DNA of 64,000 nt, taken from the NCBI GenBank assembly GCA_964106915.2, contig OZ066922.1, one strand, 5' to 3'. This document shows, one piece after another, positions 1-54,740 of this stretch (within the stretch, counting starts at the first letter, position 1; each line of letters opens with the position of its first letter). This DNA is from Podarcis gaigeae. Taxonomy: Eukaryota. The position numbers and the translations under genes were made by a program. The notes under the pieces were generated by a model. The model had not been told where the DNA came from. It did not search any database and saw only the letters and a list, made by a program, of their open reading frames with translations.

Positions 1-52
1 GGAAGTTGCAGTCTTCCAACATCTGGAGGATCACAGATTCCCCACCACTCCA
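1..52. mobile_element. Right arm of degenerate palindromic hAT-type MITE, cut by window edge
   Basis: ggaagttgcagtc..aacatctggagg..acagattcccca resembles the right arm of the intact copies at 28194 and 61793. Confidence 0.55.
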
Positions 53-476
53 TTACAGGAAGCCAAATTTTGGAATATCTTAAAGTGGGAAGATATTTCA
101 ATTTTAGCCAAATGATTGGGGCACAAATATTACATTTTCTTTATTGTATTAATGAGTTCCCTATTTTTTCATGAATTTAAAGGAAATAAAATACGCAGAC
201 TCCCTAATTTTTGTTATGTTTTGTTTAAAAATGTTCCCCTTTGAAAACAGAGACTAAGCTTACTGTCTTGTATTCTTGAAAGGATGCAGCCAATGCAAAA
301 TTCGACAAGGAAGCAGGAGGCTGCCATTAGAGGAGAGATTTATGTGGCTGAGGGAATACAGATCTGAGCTGATTTGAATAGAAAATCAGCCAAGGAGGCA
401 AGATGTGCTACGATTATATCTCTTTAATAGCACAGTAATAGAAAACTGAGCCAAAAGCAGTCAGATTCATCTACAA

Positions 477-1046
477 CAGCCATGTCCAAGGCATCAACTG
501 CGATCGATCAGGCAATCCTGGTATGAATTCTGGTCGATTGCCATGTCCCCCTCTGCTGGAGACATGGCTGAGCAGCCACCATCTTGTCCTGAGCTCCTCT
601 CGCGGGAGGAGCTGTTTTGACACTTTGCGCACCCACGCCTGCCCCGTTGGCATGAGCTCGCTCACCCTGCACCCCCCAGCCATGGCTGGGGAAGTGGGCG
701 GTGCCAGAGGAGGTGAGCGGCAAGCGCCCGCCCACCTTACACCCAACCTTGTCGCCCACCCTGCACCCATCCCAGCTCCTTCGGGGGAAGCAGATAGGGC
801 CTGCCCCCTTAGGGAAAGCAGCCAGCACACACCCATCCACCCTGCACCCATTCCTGCTGCCCACCCTGCCCTCATCCCTGCCACCCTTCCTGCCCCCATC
901 CCTGCCGCCCATCCTGCATCTATCCCAGTCCCCTTGGGAGAAGCAGCCGGCAGCGTGTGCCCACCCACCCATCCCTGGATGGTAGATCACTGCCAGTTTT
1001 TATACTGGATCGTAGATCACAGGCTACTTCGAGTTGGACATGCCTG
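477..1046. mobile_element. Non-autonomous hAT (Charlie-like) DNA transposon
   Basis: TIR cagccatgtccaa / ttggacatgcctg (12/13); perfect 8-bp TSD atctacaa at 469-476 and 1047-1054; GC-rich interior with degenerate 12-nt C-rich minisatellite at ~836-930. Confidence 0.88.
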
Positions 1047-2766
1047 ATCTACAACACTGTAAAAGTATAAAGCAGGAAGGATAACATTGCTTACATGTTT
1101 GCTTCCTGATGCCTATTGGCAAACGATAAAGTTTTCCTTGCAGAATTGCAGTAGTAAATACTCAAAACAAAATGGAAGCAAATATTAGGCAAGACTAAAA
1201 CTGTTGCATGGGAAAACATGATCCTCACCTGCAACACACTGTATGGAAGAAAGGAAGGCTGATTGGCCATGTGAAAAAGGAATGCATCCTTGTTATATGG
1301 CTTATACTGTGCCACAACGAACAGTAGGGGGGGGGGAGTTATCTTAACCTTCCTGCAAGATGCTCAGAACAGCAGTTTAGCTTAGCATGCCCTCTGGAAG
1401 TGCACGAGGCTAAGAACTAGGGCTGAATCACACCTTAGCTGCTGTTTTCCTTCATGGCATTTGTCAACAGTACATTATAAGAAAGGACTGGATGTGAACC
1501 AGGCTCTACAAAATGAGCTACTATGATTATGGAAAAAGAAAAGAAATACTGCCAGGAACCTGCATCACTATATAAGGGAGCAAGAGTCATATATGAACTT
1601 TTCCATTGGTAGGTTGTCTCCAGAAGCAACTGAGATATATCAATGGAAGGAAGCTTTGGGTTAGTGATAGCATTGAAATGAGTAGTTACGTAGCTCATAA
1701 GGGGAACTCGACTCATTGTTAATGCCTAGCTGCCTAACTTGTTTCCTCACCTGTCCCATTCTTCAACATCTTGGATGGAACACAGGATGAGGCCTTCCTC
1801 TGTCTCTGTCACTTGGAAGCTGCCTTTGAGAAACCACATTTTCCAGGGTCCCTGGTGATGCGGATGATGACACAGTGATGTTTTAGGAAACAAGGAATTG
1901 CTGCCTCCGGTTTAAGTGGGGCGTGAAAAGGGCTATGGGGGAAATGGGGGAGGCAACAGACAGCTCTACATTTGGTTTGCTTCTAATTCTGAATGTGATC
2001 TATAGCTTTGGGGCTGACTAGAGATTTGAACTTGAGATTTCAATATACAAACCAAATATTTTAGCTACTGGACTGTATTCACTCATCCTAAGAGATATTT
2101 CTAGTTAAATCCATTTCCTAAAACATACATGTGCTTCTCTGCCTTTCTAGCACTGGATTAACTCAGCTCCACTAAGTGGTTAATCCTTTCTAGCACTGGA
2201 TTAACCACTCTGCTATAAACTGTCTCTGGATGAAGGGGCAGGGGGGAGACTTGCTATAGTGCCTTTGGATCAAATGTAGAGCTCTTTTGCTATCCAGAAT
2301 TGGATTCACCGCCACTACACTTAGCCTCTCATCAATAACACTTACCTGGTCGCCTATTAAAAATCATTTTACAATAATCAACAAGTTTTACAATGGTATG
2401 GCTACATATTCAATTAGCTCCTGCAATCAATGGTTCCTCATTAATTCTCCTTTGATTGTGCTTCCTTTAACCAATAGTCCCATTACTGTAATTACTTACA
2501 GAAATCATTTTCATCAAGTAAAGAGCAGACAAGAACTGTAAAACATTAGCACACTGCTAATTAAGACTGATATTAACATCCAGTTTCATTAGCCACATAG
2601 AACACCAAAGAGGGATTAGTGTCCAGTGCTTTGTACTTTCAGATCTATTCTACTCCTCTTATTTAAAAAAGTAGTAGCGAGCTACATGATGCCATTTCAA
2701 GGCATGGGGGTAACCTGCAGCTCTAGGGCCTAAGAATAATGGCAGCAGTCTAGTTGGGCAGTCTAA

Positions 2767-3851
2767 TAGGCCTGGGCAATATATTGATATATCGCCTAGG
2801 ACCAGTATGTGGGGGCAGACCGCAACGACAGTTTCAGTCAGTGGTATATTCCTGGGGAAACCATCACCGTTTTTGAGGCCCTCTGCCTCCAGCGCCCAGC
2901 ACGCTGAGGGAGAACCAAATTAGCTGGGCACTGGAGGCAGAGGGACTCAAGTGGCGGTTTCACCAGCGATATACTGCTGGTGAAACCGCCGTCACACTCT
3001 GCCCCAGCAGAGAGAGTATAAAGCTGAATCTGTGTGCTCTCTGTCCCCAGCTGGGAGAGCCTGCCCCTGCTCCTGCTTAAACATGAGTAGGAGCAGGATT
3101 GGGGCTTTTCAGCTGCGAAGTGGGAAGCCTGCCCTTCCCAGCTGGGAGAGCCCCAGCTCTGACCCTGGTTGGTTACCTTCTCTGGGAGGGTGTGATTTGC
3201 CTTTCCTCCCAGAAAGATGGAGCCCACCCTCCCGGTGGAAGGCAGCCAGGTGGTACAGGGGCTCTTTGATGCTGCTGGCAGGCCCAGCGCTCAACAACAG
3301 CTTCCAGCAGCCACTCTCCGCAAGGTGAAGATAGGGTGGCTTTGCCTTGCGGATTTTGTCTGGGAGGGTGGGCTGCATCATTCCTCCTGGGGTGAACGAC
3401 ACCCCTCCCACCGGAGGAAAGAGACAGTGCACCCGCATGGCAGTCAAACGAACAGAGCCTGACAGGTTCCATGCACTTGGCTACTGCCACTTGGTCTATT
3501 CTCAGGGAGTGGGGGGCAAGTAGGCAAGGTAGCTCACCCGCTCCCCATGCCAGCAAAGGCAGAGGGAGCTTGACCAAGGAGCCTCAAGGTCCTTGTGGCT
3601 CCAGCGTGAGCAGCAGGGGACTTGGGGCTGGCTTCACTGAGGACGGAGCCTGGCCAAGGGGCACCGGGGCTCACTTAGCTGGGGGCAAGATCCTTTCCGT
3701 CTTTCCAGCTGTATTTGCCACAGCCTGCGAGGCTCAGTGTTGAAAGCGCCTCAGCTCCCATGATTTTTTCAACATCGCCGTATATCGCCAAACTGCAATG
3801 TTTGTCTGGCAATACACTGCAATGTTGAAAAACCAACATCGCCTAGTCCTA
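2767..3851. mobile_element. Non-autonomous hAT-type element, 1085 bp
   Basis: Termini taggcctgggcaatat / acatcgcctagtccta (12/16 inverted match); 8-bp TSD cagtctaa (2759-2766) / cagtctag (3852-3859); subterminal atatcgcc-like repeats; GC-rich compared with flanks. Confidence 0.75.
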
Positions 3852-5854
3852 CAGTCTAGTAGCGCAAGCATGCACCCAGTCCTGAAATATAATCCCCACC
3901 CAAGTAATATTTTTTCAGCATTTCATGTGTTATATTTTAAGTCCTGCTTATTTAAGTTAGCTGTCAGCAGCCGTTTTCCTCTTTGGTAAACTCACATTGG
4001 CAAACTCACAAAGATCTATTCATCCTTCTCGGTCATTCCCTTCATAATTATTTACATTAAAAATAGCTGCACAGTTGTGATTACATACGTATGTATTTTG
4101 TGCACTAATTGCATTGGCTGTTGGCTGCAAATAAATATCTATCTAGCCATCTGTGCACATTAAAAATAGTTACAAGGCTTGTCAAATATAGATTAATACA
4201 TTAATATATTCACAAAACCTTCAGAGACTCATTATGCAAAATCATAGGTGCGTTATAAAACCACATACATCTTAAATATTGCATGCCAATATTGAAGTAG
4301 AACCCTAGGCCAAATGTATACATGGTGACTATTGTAGGATTGCGTTGTTCTTTTTAATTTGGTCCAGTTATTATTGTTTAAATACCTGCTGAAGACATGC
4401 AGCCAGCTGTGTGGCTCACTTGACCCTTGCCCATGTATCAGATGTAGGGTTTGTAAGAGCCCTTTATTTTTCCATGATGATGAGATAAACAACATTTTGT
4501 AATTAAGTTTCCCTGGCTACATTGTAGCTGAAGGTCTAATCATTGTAATATGAACTAAATTACCTTAATTTATCCTGGCACAAGACAAAAACTTCCCTCT
4601 ATAACTAGGCCTTTTAGAAGTTGGTGGGATGTTTGTAATGTATTTTTTTTTCCTCTTGGTTTTAATGCATCTATGTGGGGTTCTTTGTCTGTCTGTTTGT
4701 TTGGTTGCTTGGTTGCAAGTTGCTTTGGGTTGCCAAGGAATGAAGTTTCAGCAATGGCTTTTGAAGATAACAAGTAAACAAGTAGAGGAGATATGATATA
4801 GATCCAAAGTCATGGCACCACAAGTTAGTCAATGCAAAGCATGTCAATAGATATACTGACACAACTGCTAGGTTTAAAACAAAAACAAACAAACAAAAAC
4901 CCAATAGGGGATGAAAGAGACTAACTCAGATTAGTTGAATAATGGGAAAAATCTGAAAATTAACCCCTAAATTGCCACGCATGGTGTCAATGTAACCTGT
5001 CTGATCCTGTATCCACAATTAAGAGATCAGAATTTGTGGCACAAGGCTGCAGAATACCTCAGAACAAATTCTCAATAGCTTCTCCCTGTTGGCCTTAACT
5101 ATGGATAAGGCACATGTTCTTAACCAGATTCACTGTTACCTAGAATCAGAAGTAGATTACCATGGTTAAAGTAGGTGTTGTCTTAGGCCAAAGTGGAGAA
5201 TTATACCAGATTTAGTAAGGGGTGTTGGGAGGCAGCTTGTGGCTCCTTTCCAATCCTTTAACACCAAGGCAGCAAAGAGGAATGCATCAGCACCAGCCTG
5301 CCAAAGCTGAGCACCACATTAAAATCTCACAACTGCTATAGAATATTTAAACACAATATAGACAGTGTTTGAGCATGCAAAAGCACTTTAGAAATGTATG
5401 CACATATTTGTTTCTTAAACTTAAAGAGGTTGACTCTCAGCAAAAGCTACTGAGATGGAAAATAATAAAATCAGCACAAATAAATACAAATCACAAGGGG
5501 GAGGGGAATTTAAAAAAAAACTTTAAACACACACACACACACTGACAAACAGATTAATAACATTCAGAAAAGTAAAAATGAACAACAGTAATCTATCCAA
5601 GCAAGTAAAAAAAAAGCTTTCTGGAACAAAAATCATTTTTACATGTGTTAAAAGGGAGAGGACACAGGCCAGGCAAACTGTCTCCATATTACCCAATTGC
5701 CTGATCGGTCTGCTGTCCAGGTGCTAACTGTTGGTTGACAACTCCAAGCACCCTGAACTACCTTCTTGTGATTTTTTAATATTTAATCTGGATTTGAAAC
5801 AGACAGCCCATCAGATAGAGGCCTCCTTCAAAATAAAAGGCTGCAAGCACACAA

Positions 5855-6055
5855 TACATTCAAAGCAGAGATAAATCACATAACTTGGCGTCCGCCCCCC
5901 AAATCCTGGGAACTGTAGTTTTAACAAACTACTATAGCTCTGTGGGGGTAAATTATGGAATTATATGATGGGAATTATAGCTCTCTCTGGAAACTATAGT
6001 TTCCAGAATTCTTTGGGGGAAGCCATGTGCTTCAAAGTTGATTCAAGTGTGTTTA
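5855..6055. repeat. Old palindromic MITE-like repeat
   Basis: Degenerate inverted arms tcctgggaactgtagt ... actatagtttccagaa; related remnant near 26110-26200. Confidence 0.45.
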
Positions 6056-6547
6056 AAAATATGCCACTCACGTTATCACATCTCCTTTTTTATCTTAATT
6101 TTTAAAATTGTCCCCTAAAAAGCAAGTGTCATAATCTCAGCCCCTCTTCAATGAGTAGGATGACCATGGATTCTTTTTTATATTTGCCAAATGGGGCAAG
6201 TTTATCCTTATTCTCAGTATCAAGTTGTTCAGTGTATATAGGATAAAGACAAATGTCTCCTTGTCATATTCATTTAAAACTAAAGAGGAAATTTTACTGC
6301 TGCCATATTTCCTTAACACACAATTGAGATTCATAGTTTGCAGTTGTTGGCACAGCGGGACTCCTTCACTCCTAATAGCGCTTAGCAGGCAGTGCATATT
6401 AGGAAGGCTTCACACACTACAGGAGACAACAGCATTTTTAATGTGATGTGCACAAAGAGCTCTGTAGGCGCATACATGGCTTGCCCCAGTTGATTCATTA
6501 ACAGAGTGTATTCTGTAAATGGGCAGCATTCCCTGCAACTGAACACA

Positions 6548-6712
6548 GCAGCCGGTATGGTGTACTGGTTAGAGTGTTGGATTAGTACTTGGGACACCAG
6601 GGTTTAATCCCCAAGTCAGCCATGAAGCTCACGGGGTGACATGCCAGTGTCTCTCAGTCTACTCTACTTCATGGAGCTTTTGTGCAGCTAAAAGAGTGGG
6701 GAGAAGCAGGTA
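6548..6712 (+). mobile_element. tRNA-derived MIR/Ther1-related SINE (Squam3-like), degenerate
   Basis: A-box-like tggtgtactggttag, B-box-like ggtttaatccc, then gccatgaagctcac.gggtgac..gccagt..ctctcag core. Confidence 0.7.
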
Positions 6713-8096
6713 CAGGAGAAAAACAACGAACACAACTGAGAAGTAAGGAGATAGGCAAAGGAAGGTGGGTCTAGCTAAGTTCAAGAAGGCATCCATGGGT
6801 TTGGAGCAGACTCAAAGAAAGATGAAGTGGGTGCAATAACCAAAGGGCTATATGAAGCAGAGCATATTCTGGGTCGAAGACTGAACTAAGTGGGGGCTGT
6901 AACAGGCCTAATTGTAGAAGTCTTCTTGATTGTGTAGCCCCAAATGGTGAAAATGTTCTCGAAGGCTTGCAAATGCCATCTTGATAGTCAGTATAACCCT
7001 GGGACTAATTCTTAGTTGCTGCAAGAATAAGATCATGTATGTTTATTCACTTGCTTTGATGTATGCTAATTGGCTTCTTTGATGCTATGTTTATCTGTGG
7101 TGGGCTTGGGACCTTTGGCTATTAGCCTTCAGAAAGGAGCTATCCATGAATTTTGAGTGCCAGTCACCTATGCCTTCAGCAGCAAAGTGCACTGATGGGA
7201 GGTTCTGGCCAAATGGATGCATGCTGCTTTTTGTATAAGTAATGCTTAACCTGTCAGCACCTCTCAGACAAGTCATGACAACTGCTTGCTGCTTCAGTGT
7301 TTGCCTGGAGCCGGTAATGGCAGCAAGGCTTGTCAGGCTGTGTTGTATTCTACACTTCCTTCTAATAAAGCTCTAGAATGGGCTATTCTGGAATTTTTGA
7401 CATCCTTTTTTGGTAGCCCTGCATTAAACCACTCTCACAACTCATACCTTGGGGCTGTGGATCAGGACACTGATGAATGTTAACCATAAATGGTCATCTC
7501 ATTAAGGACAGGACTGGAAGAAGGGGCAATAAATGTTAATTAACTATAGTATGTGGTTACATGAATACCAGTTTCCTGCCACATAGTTGCCAAATAGTAA
7601 TTATTCTAGTGTTGATTAAAACACAGATTTTCAAGTATGTCTACATTAAAAATTCACAATATCATTAATACAGGAGCTTTAGTTTTGAAATGTATTTTTT
7701 ACTCTTCTTGGGCTACTATTCTGGATAAAAACTAAGGGCATACTTTCATTAGATGCATTAACATGCACAGGCTGCAGCAAATTTAGACAATAAAAGTTCC
7801 CAATTCTCCACTTTCACTTGCATAGGGCATTCCTCAAGAAAGCATGCCTGTCAATATCTTTATTAATAGCTGTCTTTCTTCTAGATATTGGAGTTGTGCC
7901 ATTAACTGAATTCAAATACTTTCAAATGCATCTTTTAAACATAGTTGCACTGAACAACATGTAGATTCGGATGTAGAAGTAGGTTTGTGTTTGGATACCA
8001 TGGTTGGTAGCTGGATATTTGGAAGTTCAAGCCATGGTCTGGGTTCCAAACTATGGTTAGTGCTAACCATAGTTTGGTGTTGTTTCTATATACATC

Positions 8097-8921
8097 TGTC
8101 AGGGGCTCAGGAGCAGAGGCACAGGGGAGAGAGGAAACGGAGAGCGAAGGGGAAGAATCTGAGGACAGCGTAGGGGAGTATGACAGTGGCCCGAGAGATT
8201 CCATGAGCTTCTCCAGCAATTCAGAAGATTCCCAGAGGGGGGCGCCGATGGCCAGGGCAAGGGGGGTCCCAGGGGGGACGCACCAGAAGCAAGGGGCCAG
8301 CGGGGACTCCCAAAGCAGTAGCGGGAGATCAGGACCAGTTCCCCCTCCAGAGCGTAGTGGGGGGGAAGAGTCCCATGTATCAGGGCCAGCCTCTCCTCCA
8401 GTAGGGAGAGAAGATGAGTCAGAGCTGACCACGCCTCTATCGGAGAGTGAGGGAACGGAGGGGAAGTCAGGTCCAGCTAGCCCCCCCTGAAGGGGGAAGC
8501 AGTGACAGGAGCAGTGTAACGGTCAGGAGAAAGGTTGCCGGCTGGGCGCGTGCGCCAAGTTCAAATGTGCAGGCGCGCGGGACAGCAGAAAACCCGGATT
8601 GGGAACCAGGTCCTAAAGCCCGCCGGAGGCAGGGGGAAGACTCAGGGGACTCAGCGTCAGAAGAGTCTAGAAAGGGCAAGACCCCAGTGGACAGGCGGAC
8701 CCAGAGGAGGAAAGAGCAAAGGAAGAAGTGGAGCAAGGCTAGAGTCTTAAACTGGTGTCTGGGAGGAGGAGATTCAGACGGAGCTTCAGCGGTCTAGAGT
8801 TCAAGACGTAGAGCTGCGCGCCGCGGCTTTGAAATCGAAACTGAACTTCAATAAAGACTTTTGTATATAGCAAGAACTGGCGTTGGTCCTTTGTGAGCTG
8901 GGACCTCGGACAGCTCTGACA
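8097..8921 (+). mobile_element. Solo LTR (Ty3/gypsy-like, 5-bp TSD), young and CpG-rich
   Basis: TGTCAG...CTGACA inverted termini; perfect TSD acatc at 8092-8096 and 8922-8926; AATAAA at 8850-8855; many intact CpGs. Confidence 0.85.
8098..8797 (+). pseudogene. LTR-internal reading frame, ~232 aa after removing one C; acidic/Ser-Pro-rich N part and Arg/Lys-rich C part
   Basis: Track ORFs 8053-8490 and 8447-8797 join at the C7 run 8481-8487; frame is open from LTR base 2; SGPASPP repeated with synonymous codon changes. Confidence 0.55.
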
Positions 8922-9100
8922 ACATCCATTTCCTTTTGTCTTTCTTTCTCTTTGCTGCAGTTGTGATTTCTGTACTAATAAGGATTTAGCTATGATTATC
9001 TCAGCTATACAAGGTGCCCTGTTGAAAACCAAAGCAACCAGCTACCAGAACATACATTTTAAAAACTGTAATTTCTTCAAATTACTTCTGGGAAAACTAC

Positions 9101-9540
9101 TGGTTTTCCCAGTAGTGATGTATGGAAGTGAGAGCTGGACCATAAAGAAGGCTGATCGCCGAAGAATTGATGCTTTTGAATTATGGTGCTGGAGGAGACT
9201 CTTGAGAGTCCCATGGACTGCAAGAAGATCAAACGTATCCATTCTTAAGGAAATCAGCCCTGAGTGCTCACTGGAAGGACAGATCGTGAAGCTGAGGCTC
9301 CAATACTTTGGCCACCTCATGAAAAGAGAAGACTCCCTGGAAAAGACCCTGATGTTGGGAAAGATTGAGGGCACAAGAAGAAGGGGATGACAGAGAATGA
9401 GATGGTTGGACAGTGTTCTTGAAGCTACAAACATGAGTCTAACCAAACTGCGGGGAGGCAGTGGAAGACAGGAGTGCCTGGCATGCTCTGGTCCATGGGG
9501 TCACGAAGAGTCAGACACGACTAAACGACTAAACAACAAC
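9101..9540 (+). mobile_element. RTE-BovB LINE, 5'-truncated 3' end
   Basis: Translates as VFPVVMYGSESWTIKKADRRRIDAFELWCWRRLLRVPWTARRSN...LRLQYFGHLM..EDSLEKTLMLGKIEG; (caa)n-type tail; 14-bp TSD aatttcttcaaatt at 9070-9083 and 9541-9554. Confidence 0.95.
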
Positions 9541-52823: not shown

Positions 52824-53003
52824 NNNNNNNNNNNNNNNNNNNNNNNNNNNNNNNNNNNNNNNNNNNNNNNNNNNNNNNNNNNNNNNNNNNNNNNNNNNNN
52901 NNNNNNNNNNNNNNNNNNNNNNNNNNNNNNNNNNNNNNNNNNNNNNNNNNNNNNNNNNNNNNNNNNNNNNNNNNNNNNNNNNNNNNNNNNNNNNNNNNNN
53001 NNN
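52824..53003. other. Assembly gap (180 N)
   Basis: Run of n. Confidence 1.
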
Positions 53004-53120: not shown

Positions 53121-54740
53121 AAAATGTGGTTACAAAGCATGGATCCTCAGGACCTTTGCATTGGGTCACCCCAAATTCACCATCAGATCACATAGCATGT
53201 CCATGGCTACAGCCTGCACCAAAAAAATCAAGCACCCACTGTTGCCTGGGGCTGCAATGGTGCAAAAATGTGGTTAAAAAGCATGGATCCACAGGGATTC
53301 TCAGGATCCTTGCATTGGGTCACCCCAAATTCACCATCAGATCACATAGCATGTCCATGGCTACAGCCTGCACCAAAAAAATCACGCACCCACTGTTGCC
53401 TGGGGCTGCAATGGTGCAAAAATGTGGTTAAAAAGCATGGATCCACAGGGATTCTCAGGATTTTGGCATTGGGTCACCCCAAATTCACCATCAGAGCACA
53501 TAGCATGTCCATGGCTACAGCCTGCCCCCCCAAAAATCACGCACCCACTGTTGCCTGGGGCTGCAATGGTGCAAAAACGTGGTTACAAACCATGGATCCA
53601 CATGGATCCTCAGGACCTTTGCATTGGGTCAGCCCAAATTCACCATCAGAGCACATAGCATGTCCATGGCTACAGCCTGCCCCCCCCCCAAAACCACGCA
53701 CCCACTGTTGCCTGGGGCTGCAATGGTGCAAAAATGTGGTTAAAAAGCATGGATCCACAGGAATTCTCAGGATTTTGGCATTGGATCACCCCAAATTCAC
53801 CATCAGATCACATAGCATGTCCATGGCAACAGCCTGCCCCCCCAAAATCACGCACCCACTGTTGCCTGGGGCTGCAATTGTGCAAAAATGTGGTTAAAAA
53901 GCATGGATCCACAGGAATTCTCAGGATTTTGGCATTGGGTCACCCCAAATTCACCATCAGATCACATAGCATGTCCATGGCTACAGCCTGCCCCCCCCAA
54001 ATCACATACCCACTGTTGCCTGGGGCTGCAATGGTGCAAAAACGTGGTTACAAACCATGGATCCGCATGGATCCTCAGGATCTTTGCATTGGGTCAGCCC
54101 AAATTCACCATCAGAGCACATAGCATGTCCATGGCTACAGCCTGCCCCCCAAAAATCACGCACCCACTGTTGCCTGGGGCTGCAATGGTGCAAAAATGTG
54201 GTTAAAAAGCATGGATCCACAGGAATTCTCAGGATTTTGGCATTGGGTCACCCCAAATTCACCATCAGATCACATAGCATGTCCATGGCTACAGCCGGCC
54301 CCCCAAAATCACGCACCCACTGTTGCCTGGGGCTGCAATGGTGCAAAAATGTGTTTAAAAAGCATGGATCCACAGGAATTCTCAGGATTTTGGCATTGGG
54401 TCACCCCAAATTCACCATCAGATCACATAGCATGTCCATGGCTACAGCCTGCCCCCCCCCAAATCACATACCCACTGTTGCCTGGGGCTGCAATGGTGCA
54501 AAAACGTGGTTACAAACCATGGATCCACATGGATCCTCAGGATCTTTGCATTGGGTCAGCCCAAATTCACCATCAGAGCACATAGCATGTCCATGGCTAC
54601 AGCCTGCCCCCCAAAAATCACGCACCCACTGTTGCCTGGGGCTGCAATGGTGCAAAAACGTGGTTACAAACCATGGATGCACAGGGATTCTCAGGATTTT
54701 TGCATTGGGTCAGCCCAAATTCACCATCAGATCACATGTC
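53121..54740. repeat. ~154-bp tandem satellite-like array, ~10.5 units, AAB higher-order pattern
   Basis: Unit starts at 53268, 53422, 53577, 53734, 53888, 54042, 54196, 54349, 54504 and 54658, plus a shorter lead unit at 53121. Confidence 0.95.

Follow-up and report, generated by a model that had tools for sequence, protein, structure and literature searches.

A Podarcis Ty3/gypsy retrotransposon family whose pol frame continues through the predicted U3 of its LTR

The long terminal repeat (LTR) described here, a single copy within a 64,000-nucleotide stretch of Podarcis gaigeae DNA (the window), comes from a Ty3/gypsy family in which pol reads through the polypurine tract (PPT) and the whole predicted U3 of the 3' LTR, is under selection there, and likely supplies an import or docking module in the tail that it encodes. 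We regard this as the best explanation of the data and give it, taken as a whole, a probability of roughly 0.6. One part of it, that the LTR frame is the end of Pol and is coding sequence under selection, is very likely. Both the layout and the selection were observed among natural copies of the family, and the layout was observed again in a second family of the same genome.

The solo LTR and the element it comes from

An earlier note on this DNA had described a well-formed solo LTR, and the termini TGTCAG..CTGACA, the 5-bp target-site duplication (TSD) ACATC and the AATAAA at 8850 are all in place. Since no other part of the element was found in the 64-kb window, the copy at 8097-8921 is a solo LTR, and its parts are as follows.

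8092..8096, no strand: left target-site duplication ACATC, a flanking repeat
8097..8921, + strand: solo LTR, 825 nt, TGTCAG..CTGACA, 98.06% identical to both LTRs of a full-length element
8097..8775, + strand: predicted U3, coding throughout from base 2, its boundary inferred from the self-primer
8098..8490, + strand: first part of the Pol tail frame, acidic and rich in Ser, Gly and Pro, broken in this copy at TGA 8488-8490
8491..8797, + strand: remainder of the Pol tail frame, shifted to the next phase in the window copy, ending with TAG 8795-8797
8681..8758, + strand: basic stretch with the RVLNWC motif, the sole predicted helix of the LTR-coded part, lying within the most constrained set of codon columns (omega 0.31)
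8747..8751, + strand: TTAAA, TATA-like, 29-25 nt upstream of the predicted start site, a putative promoter element
8776..8786, + strand: 11-nt self-primer complementary to the PBS of full elements, predicted transcription start, within the last codons of the frame
8776..8921, + strand: predicted R-U5, non-coding beyond 8797, where 1-nt indels are tolerated
8850..8855, + strand: AATAAA polyadenylation signal, 53 nt 3' of the stop
8922..8926, no strand: right target-site duplication ACATC, a flanking repeat

A frame running from LTR base 2 to 8797 with one break had also been reported, and such a frame is there, meeting TGA at 8488-8490 and carrying on in the next phase to TAG at 8795-8797. Slippage in a C7 run, to which the break had been attributed, is ruled out as its cause, the same run being common to 17 of the 30 closest copies. 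Because this run is shared and the frame is open to the same stop in 16 of the 30 copies fetched, the break near 8488 is private to the window copy, which, with this break and no upstream frame, would itself make no tail protein. The first part of the frame is acidic and the second basic, as described; the Pol tail as a whole likewise starts acidic (37 Asp/Glu and 8 Lys/Arg in 154 residues) and ends basic (17 Lys/Arg in 61).

The best 40 of 2258 first-look candidate matches in the genome are 93-100% identical to the LTR, which belongs to a young Ty3/gypsy family with features of the Tf1/sushi group. A full element (L031) is delimited on contig C32 by two matches 5.9 kb from each other; in it a gag frame is followed by a pol frame that measures 1591 codons between stops, the two overlapping by 190 nt with GGGAAAC inside the overlap. 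Pfam recognised Retrotrans_gag, Ty3_capsid and, below its cut-off, zf-CCHC in the gag frame, and RVP_2 (weak, below cut-off), RVT_1, RT_RNaseH, Integrase_H2C2, rve and SH3_Tf2-1 in the pol frame, where the recognised domains reach residue 1116; no env frame was found in L031. After the SH3 domain come a chromodomain-like region, 154 acidic residues, the PPT, read as GFEGGMD, and 232 codons in the 3' LTR. The tail beyond the chromodomain-like region amounts to 360-390 residues, 207-232 of them LTR-coded, in a Pol of about 1440 residues counted from the protease region.

Retrieval of full-length elements, as the earlier note had recommended, bore out its proposal that an internal frame crosses the PPT into the 3' LTR; of the two identities considered for this frame, it is pol, with the integrase tail, and not an accessory gene. 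Pol is in frame across the PPT and continues for 207-232 codons inside the 3' LTR, and in 7 of 21 full-length loci, 20 of which had been picked for long frames, it is continuous both for this length and for at least 1200 codons upstream. The junction was recognised in 26 of the 30 loci that have the junction region, with 11 open for at least 231 codons in the LTR and 3 of these junction loci also open upstream to the edge of the retrieved DNA. Among 155 distinct LTR copies from best-hit samples, 107 have the frame open for at least 200 codons, with modes of 207, 210 and 232.

The chromodomain-like region scores 18.1 bits against a cut-off of 25.1 with Pfam Chromo (E 0.0026). Its top ten Foldseek matches are all chromodomains at probabilities of 0.85-0.99, but with E values of 0.03-0.06, and the cage aromatics are missing in its alignment to HP1 and CDYL2. 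In an AlphaFold2 model of the tail, built from 7 sequences with a mean pLDDT of 38.8, a chromodomain-like fold is predicted first, confidence is low across residues 66-411, and a single helix follows at 411-437 with pLDDT in the 50s.

The U3 boundary and the transcription start at 8776 are predicted from the self-primer. The bases immediately 3' of the 5' LTR form no tRNA site but are complementary to an 11-nt stretch within the LTR, and self-priming from the RNA's own 5' end is, in the descriptions given by two sources, a hallmark of the Tf1/sushi group (10.1101/2022.12.06.519325, PMC6317226). The match between self-primer and PBS is exact over the 11 nt in 24 of 31 5' LTRs and has one mismatch in 7, and the two change together in four sequence types (31 5' LTRs; L031:6150-6344, minus strand). 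These types alter the last Pol residues too (DGAS, DGTS, EGTS), and the 207-codon subfamily has its stop codon overlapping the primer end. The predicted 5' RNA folds the self-primer/PBS duplex, the whole fold being no stabler than shuffles (z -1.13). Given the position of the self-primer, the start site would lie at 8776, 19 nt 5' of the stop, so that the whole predicted U3 would be coding, with both the TATA-like box and the primer falling within the final codons of the frame.

Selection on the LTR frame

The selection tests were all made on natural copies, and the omega (dN/dS) runs used only open-frame copies (100 distinct of 155), tip branches included, under a model without recombination between subfamilies. 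The dN/dS estimate that had been called for came to 0.41-0.47 for the LTR frame, below 1. A codon model fitted to 22 LTR copies, taken from the 100 distinct open frames, gave an omega of 0.47 (2dlnL 68 against omega 1), and in full elements, with 12-21 copies for each region and copies with breaks dropped, the values were 0.17 for protease, 0.09 for RT, 0.10 for RNase H, 0.10 for the integrase core, 0.11 for SH3, 0.16 for the chromodomain-like region, 0.39 for the internal tail and 0.41 for the LTR tail. An omega of 0.4-0.5 is weak constraint, and it is uneven, falling to 0.31 in the last 42 codon columns and reaching 0.97 (neutral) in a 40-codon window at columns 81-120. Pairwise NG86 estimates are 0.30-0.36 (0.41-0.48 with kappa 4) in every divergence bin, the closest included.

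Changes shared between copies favour third positions in all ten subfamily quartets, with an omega of 0.35-0.56, or 0.28-0.59 without CpG sites; as the signal persists without these sites, CpG decay is rejected as the source of the low values. The two other sense frames gave 0.87-2.8 in the quartets, and mutations private to a single copy gave 1.26 (19 N, 6 S), or 1.08 without CpG sites. The antisense frame that shares third positions with the Pol frame is open for 335 codons in L031 and gave 0.29-0.63; since pol is joined by the sense frame alone, we take this low value for a shadow of the latter.

The lengths of indels, which the earlier note had also wished to see checked, agree with a coding frame: those widely shared within it are 3, 9 and 63 nt long, whereas beyond the stop 1-nt indels are common to up to 83 copies. 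Within the ORF, +1 events common to 4-5 copies occur close to runs of G and C. With two of the three reference copies, the 63-nt and 3-nt indels came out of the pairwise alignment in pieces, and U3 length was therefore used as well; it is a multiple of 3 in 113 of 150 copies, with modes of 612 and 678 that lie 22 codons apart, the modes of R-U5 being 146, 147 and 148. None of the outcomes that the note had named as speaking against its proposal occurred, be it a consensus with stops or frameshifts in the frame, an ORF ending before the PPT, or neutral dN/dS together with random indel lengths. The 63-nt block, carried by the 824-nt subfamily and missing from the 760-nt subfamilies, covers LTR codon columns of about 110-132, repeats an SGPASPP motif and looks like a tandem duplication.

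Some of the terminal conservation acts at the DNA level, as TTA AAC TGG is the same in every one of 100 open copies. When random sequence was matched for dinucleotides, the base-2 frame was open for at least 207 codons in 37 of 20000 trials, and any of the six frames for at least 232 codons in 46 of 3000, the median longest open run being 132 codons. Composition alone makes such a frame unlikely, not impossible, and the case rests on the phase with pol and on selection.

It is against these results that the frame has to be considered as a mere by-product of a purine- and GC-rich LTR recently copied from few masters, with promoter constraint acting on the DNA and the protein unselected. Stop codons are indeed rare in this composition, as the median run of 132 codons indicates, the copies are young, with LTR pairs in full elements 96.7-100% identical, and TTAAA and the self-primer are DNA or RNA signals within the frame. 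However, the third-position excess holds in ten of ten quartets with or without CpG and is missing from the other sense frames and from private mutations, the shared indels are in frame, and the same phase and end point recur in a family with unrelated LTR DNA. The quartet, codon-model and second-family results refute this explanation, barring a mutation process with a 3-nt periodicity in phase, and it is scarcely credible.

A second family and comparison with known systems

The tail is carried to the same end by the Podarcis proteins P0001 and P0003 and by protein P0008, at 54-58% identity, and the nearest species-named proteins are from Podarcis muralis and P. lilfordi. A profile of the tail searched against 1.84 billion proteins gave 10 hits, all species-named ones being Podarcis, and no match to the tail outside these elements was found by Pfam, profile or Atlas, a blank that is no proof of novelty. 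By way of two distant profile hits a second family was identified in this genome, with a Pol 55% identical over residues 58-1216 and LTRs of 400-435 nt that have no blastn match to those of the first. Of 20 loci retrieved 16 have an LTR pair, and 10 of these 16 have an exact self-primer of at least 11 nt. Here too pol enters at LTR base 2, and it stops 22 nt past the primer start; 33 of 42 junctions are open for 96-114 codons, and omega is 0.40 (2dlnL 88, 31 copies). At its end come a basic stretch and then [QE]LLCW, spelled by many synonymous codons. The chromodomain of this sister family reaches 44.4 bits in Pfam and aligns over the chromodomain-like region of the first family, and it is in the longest-tailed family that the last cage tryptophan of the chromodomain is lost.

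Judged from protein alone, P0016 and P0021 have a like junction peptide and a basic, tryptophan-bearing end. No alignment was found between the tails of different families (E 0.16), so that the likeness of their terminal motifs is one seen by eye only. The distant hits P0025 and P0027 end shortly past the chromodomain, and the tails of P0026 and P0029 are long but unrelated, from which it follows that post-chromodomain tails are not unique. A Podarcis muralis gene model annotated as 'vomeronasal type-2 receptor 26-like' (P0023) carries the integrase, SH3 and RNase H domains of this group and is probably a gene model fused to an element.

The constancy of the end point across the two families bears on the main rival to a selected tail, which is that the frame is kept for the sake of the RNA: a pol stop 50-130 nt from the RNA end would spare it the long 3' UTR that invites nonsense-mediated decay, and the peptide would be a tolerated by-product, selected for nothing but solubility and harmlessness. 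With a U3 of 280 nt as with one of 680 nt, the stop lies 10-22 nt past the start of the self-primer, the tails are unalignable between families, omega is only 0.4-0.5, and a 21-codon block has been gained or lost, all of which is consistent with such a view. From the two-frame layout, however, most ribosomes would be expected to terminate after gag, about 4.7 kb short of the RNA end, and the position of the pol stop should then matter little; constraint peaks at the C-terminal end (omega 0.31 over the last 42 codon columns), and in the second family LLCW persists while its codons change synonymously. We consider it unlikely that the frame is kept for the RNA and prefer a Pol tail that is itself selected.

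The element shows features of a Tf1/sushi-group (V-clade) chromovirus, an assignment made by features, those of the group being taken from two sources (10.1101/2022.12.06.519325, PMC6317226). Shared with the group are a gag with a zinc knuckle, an overlapping pol in another frame with a GGGAAAC heptamer, the order PR-RT-RH-IN-SH3, a 5-bp TSD, the absence of env and an 11-nt self-primer in place of a tRNA PBS; at the place of the group's chromodomain the first family has the chromodomain-like region that scores below the Pfam cut-off. In pufferfish V-clade1 pol is described as partly overlapping the LTR, and the Pol given there has 1119 aa (PMC11117352); counted from the protease region, the lizard Pol has about 1440 residues. 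The V-clade1 overlap is partial by its description, whereas the 207-232 LTR-coded residues of the lizard family span the entire predicted U3.

In plants, pol of CRM group A is described as running into the 3' LTR (PMC3059260, PMC3605345), and the targeting of these elements has been proposed to lie with their LTR-coded CR motif (PMC3059260). Group A, with its CR motif, and as far as described Beetle7 and Bingo1-4 and 7 of Beta vulgaris, are the systems that the lizard family resembles in having pol run into the LTR. They differ in that CRM primes from a tRNA-Met PBS and the lizard family from a PBS that is an 11-nt complement of its own LTR, in that the CR motif replaces the chromodomain whereas the lizard family keeps a chromodomain-like region upstream of the PPT, and in that CRM is concentrated at centromeres whereas the lizard family is dispersed over all deciles. 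No plant proteins were found among the hits of the lizard tail profile. The likeness to CRM is convergence, not membership. The earlier note had said that retrotransposon LTRs are normally treated as non-coding, but LTRs with the end of pol in them appear in the accounts just cited (PMC3059260, PMC3605345, PMC11117352). To go by these accounts, the entry of pol into the LTR is already known from plant CRM group A and fish V-clade1, and the apparently new part is the coding of a whole U3 under selection in a vertebrate element. No account of the family, or of such whole-U3 coding in a vertebrate element, was found in the literature searched, which lay outside repeat databases and subscription papers.

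Protein coding that overlaps the U3 of the 3' LTR is found in lentiviral nef and MMTV sag, which are separate genes of env-bearing retroviruses expressed from their own spliced RNAs. These had been put forward as the precedent, and the dual use of promoter DNA through U3 coding is common to both; unlike them, the lizard frame is the continuous end of pol in an element without env, and the plant CRM elements whose LTR carries the end of pol are the closer precedent. Ty3 is described as having a chromodomain without an aromatic cage and an integrase C-terminal region that binds TFIIIB to choose sites (10.1101/2021.07.27.453949). The lizard family resembles it in a chromodomain-like region that lacks the cage aromatics and in the integrase C-terminal region, host-factor binding being described for Ty3; Ty3 differs in having a folded domain in the internal region and strict targeting of tRNA genes, and no sequence match to the lizard tail was found. 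General background was drawn from PMC3601003 and PMC2774666.

Proposed role of the tail, RNA and insertion sites

In the mechanism that we propose, the RNA would start at the self-primer in the 5' LTR, and U3 would therefore be present only at the RNA 3' end, the 3' LTR copy being transcribed and translated and the 5' copy serving as promoter. A -1 frameshift would yield Gag-Pol, and the tail would stay on integrase as a 360-390-residue acidic tether, predicted to be disordered and capped by the basic helix, which would act as a nuclear-import and chromatin-docking module for integrase. This role is suggested by analogy with the host-factor binding of the Ty3 integrase C-terminal region and with the LTR-coded CR motif, and nuclear import or chromatin tethering as the job of the tail has in our view about an even chance. 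A broader picture, of a lizard clade of self-priming chromoviruses in which the entire U3 promoter is an obligatory part of Pol and the basic helix, encoded across the TATA-like box and start site, is a new targeting or import module of integrase that is supplanting a decaying chromodomain, as an independent counterpart of the plant CR motif, is offered tentatively and is somewhat doubtful.

The U3 peptide might instead be a separate accessory protein, released by the protease or made from the in-frame ATG of the PPT on a shorter RNA, in the style of retroviral U3 ORFs. The first family has such an ATG 5 nt 5' of the LTR, the GTAAG right after the 5' LTR resembles a splice donor, and the long disordered linker would permit cleavage. 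The second family, however, has GTG in place of the ATG and no GT after the LTR, the GTAAG belongs to the self-priming PBS, and the tail is under like constraint on either side of the ATG (omega 0.39 for the internal part, 0.41 for the LTR part). RNA reads from a related organism showed no splice joints leading into the PPT in any of 4 runs, at low internal depth. A separate gene, ATG-started or spliced, is not favoured on account of the ATG not kept in the second family and the missing splice joints, and an accessory protein of any of these kinds seems quite improbable beside a tail that remains on integrase. The same reads, most of them less than 95% alike, covered the LTR to a depth of 45-250, with loose ends that pass into host sequence, pol to about 1-22 and the leader to near 0, and come mostly from LTRs embedded in host transcripts. 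Over pol the depth was mostly sense in one of two paired runs, assuming usual stranding, and mixed in the other.

If the predicted boundary is right, promoter and protein-coding region overlap completely in these elements, with the start site and the reverse-transcription primer within the last codons, and the natural copy set lets the three constraints be separated. The terminal 30 residues are a candidate module for nuclear entry or site choice in vertebrate chromoviruses. There are practical consequences for annotation as well: thousands of candidate LTR matches (2258 at first look) carry a selected open frame that can give rise to false host-gene models, and several such frames have already been deposited as hypothetical proteins of Podarcis. 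Nor can divergence of the LTR between subfamilies be assumed here to escape codon constraint.

In best-hit samples, 151 insertions on 18 large contigs fall in all ten deciles, with 8-27 per decile, and there is a 4.3-fold excess within 1 Mb of a contig end. No strict insertion target is evident, and, to judge by the spread over deciles, the family is dispersed rather than centromeric. Contig C32 (29.5 Mb) holds 45 of 203 sampled insertions against 1.9% expected from its share of the genome, many of them full-length and many in repeated blocks at 24-28 Mb. We infer that C32 behaves as a non-recombining, possibly sex-limited chromosome, and the excess may reflect low recombination rather than targeting.

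LTRs of other subfamilies lie within 200 nt of family members, or nested in them, at L002, L004, L030 and L104, which suggests insertion into each other or local clustering. The TSDs of 65 solo-LTR copies varied, with T or A often central, in forms such as GTAAC, ATACC and GATGT. Just 3' of the LTR, at about 9100-9300 of the window, lies what we take to resemble a BovB/RTE LINE fragment. Further along, at 53141-54737 and adjoining an N stretch at 52824-53003, the window has a tandem array of a 154-nt unit in 10.3 copies with 92% matches, and a similar-looking array flanks element L105.
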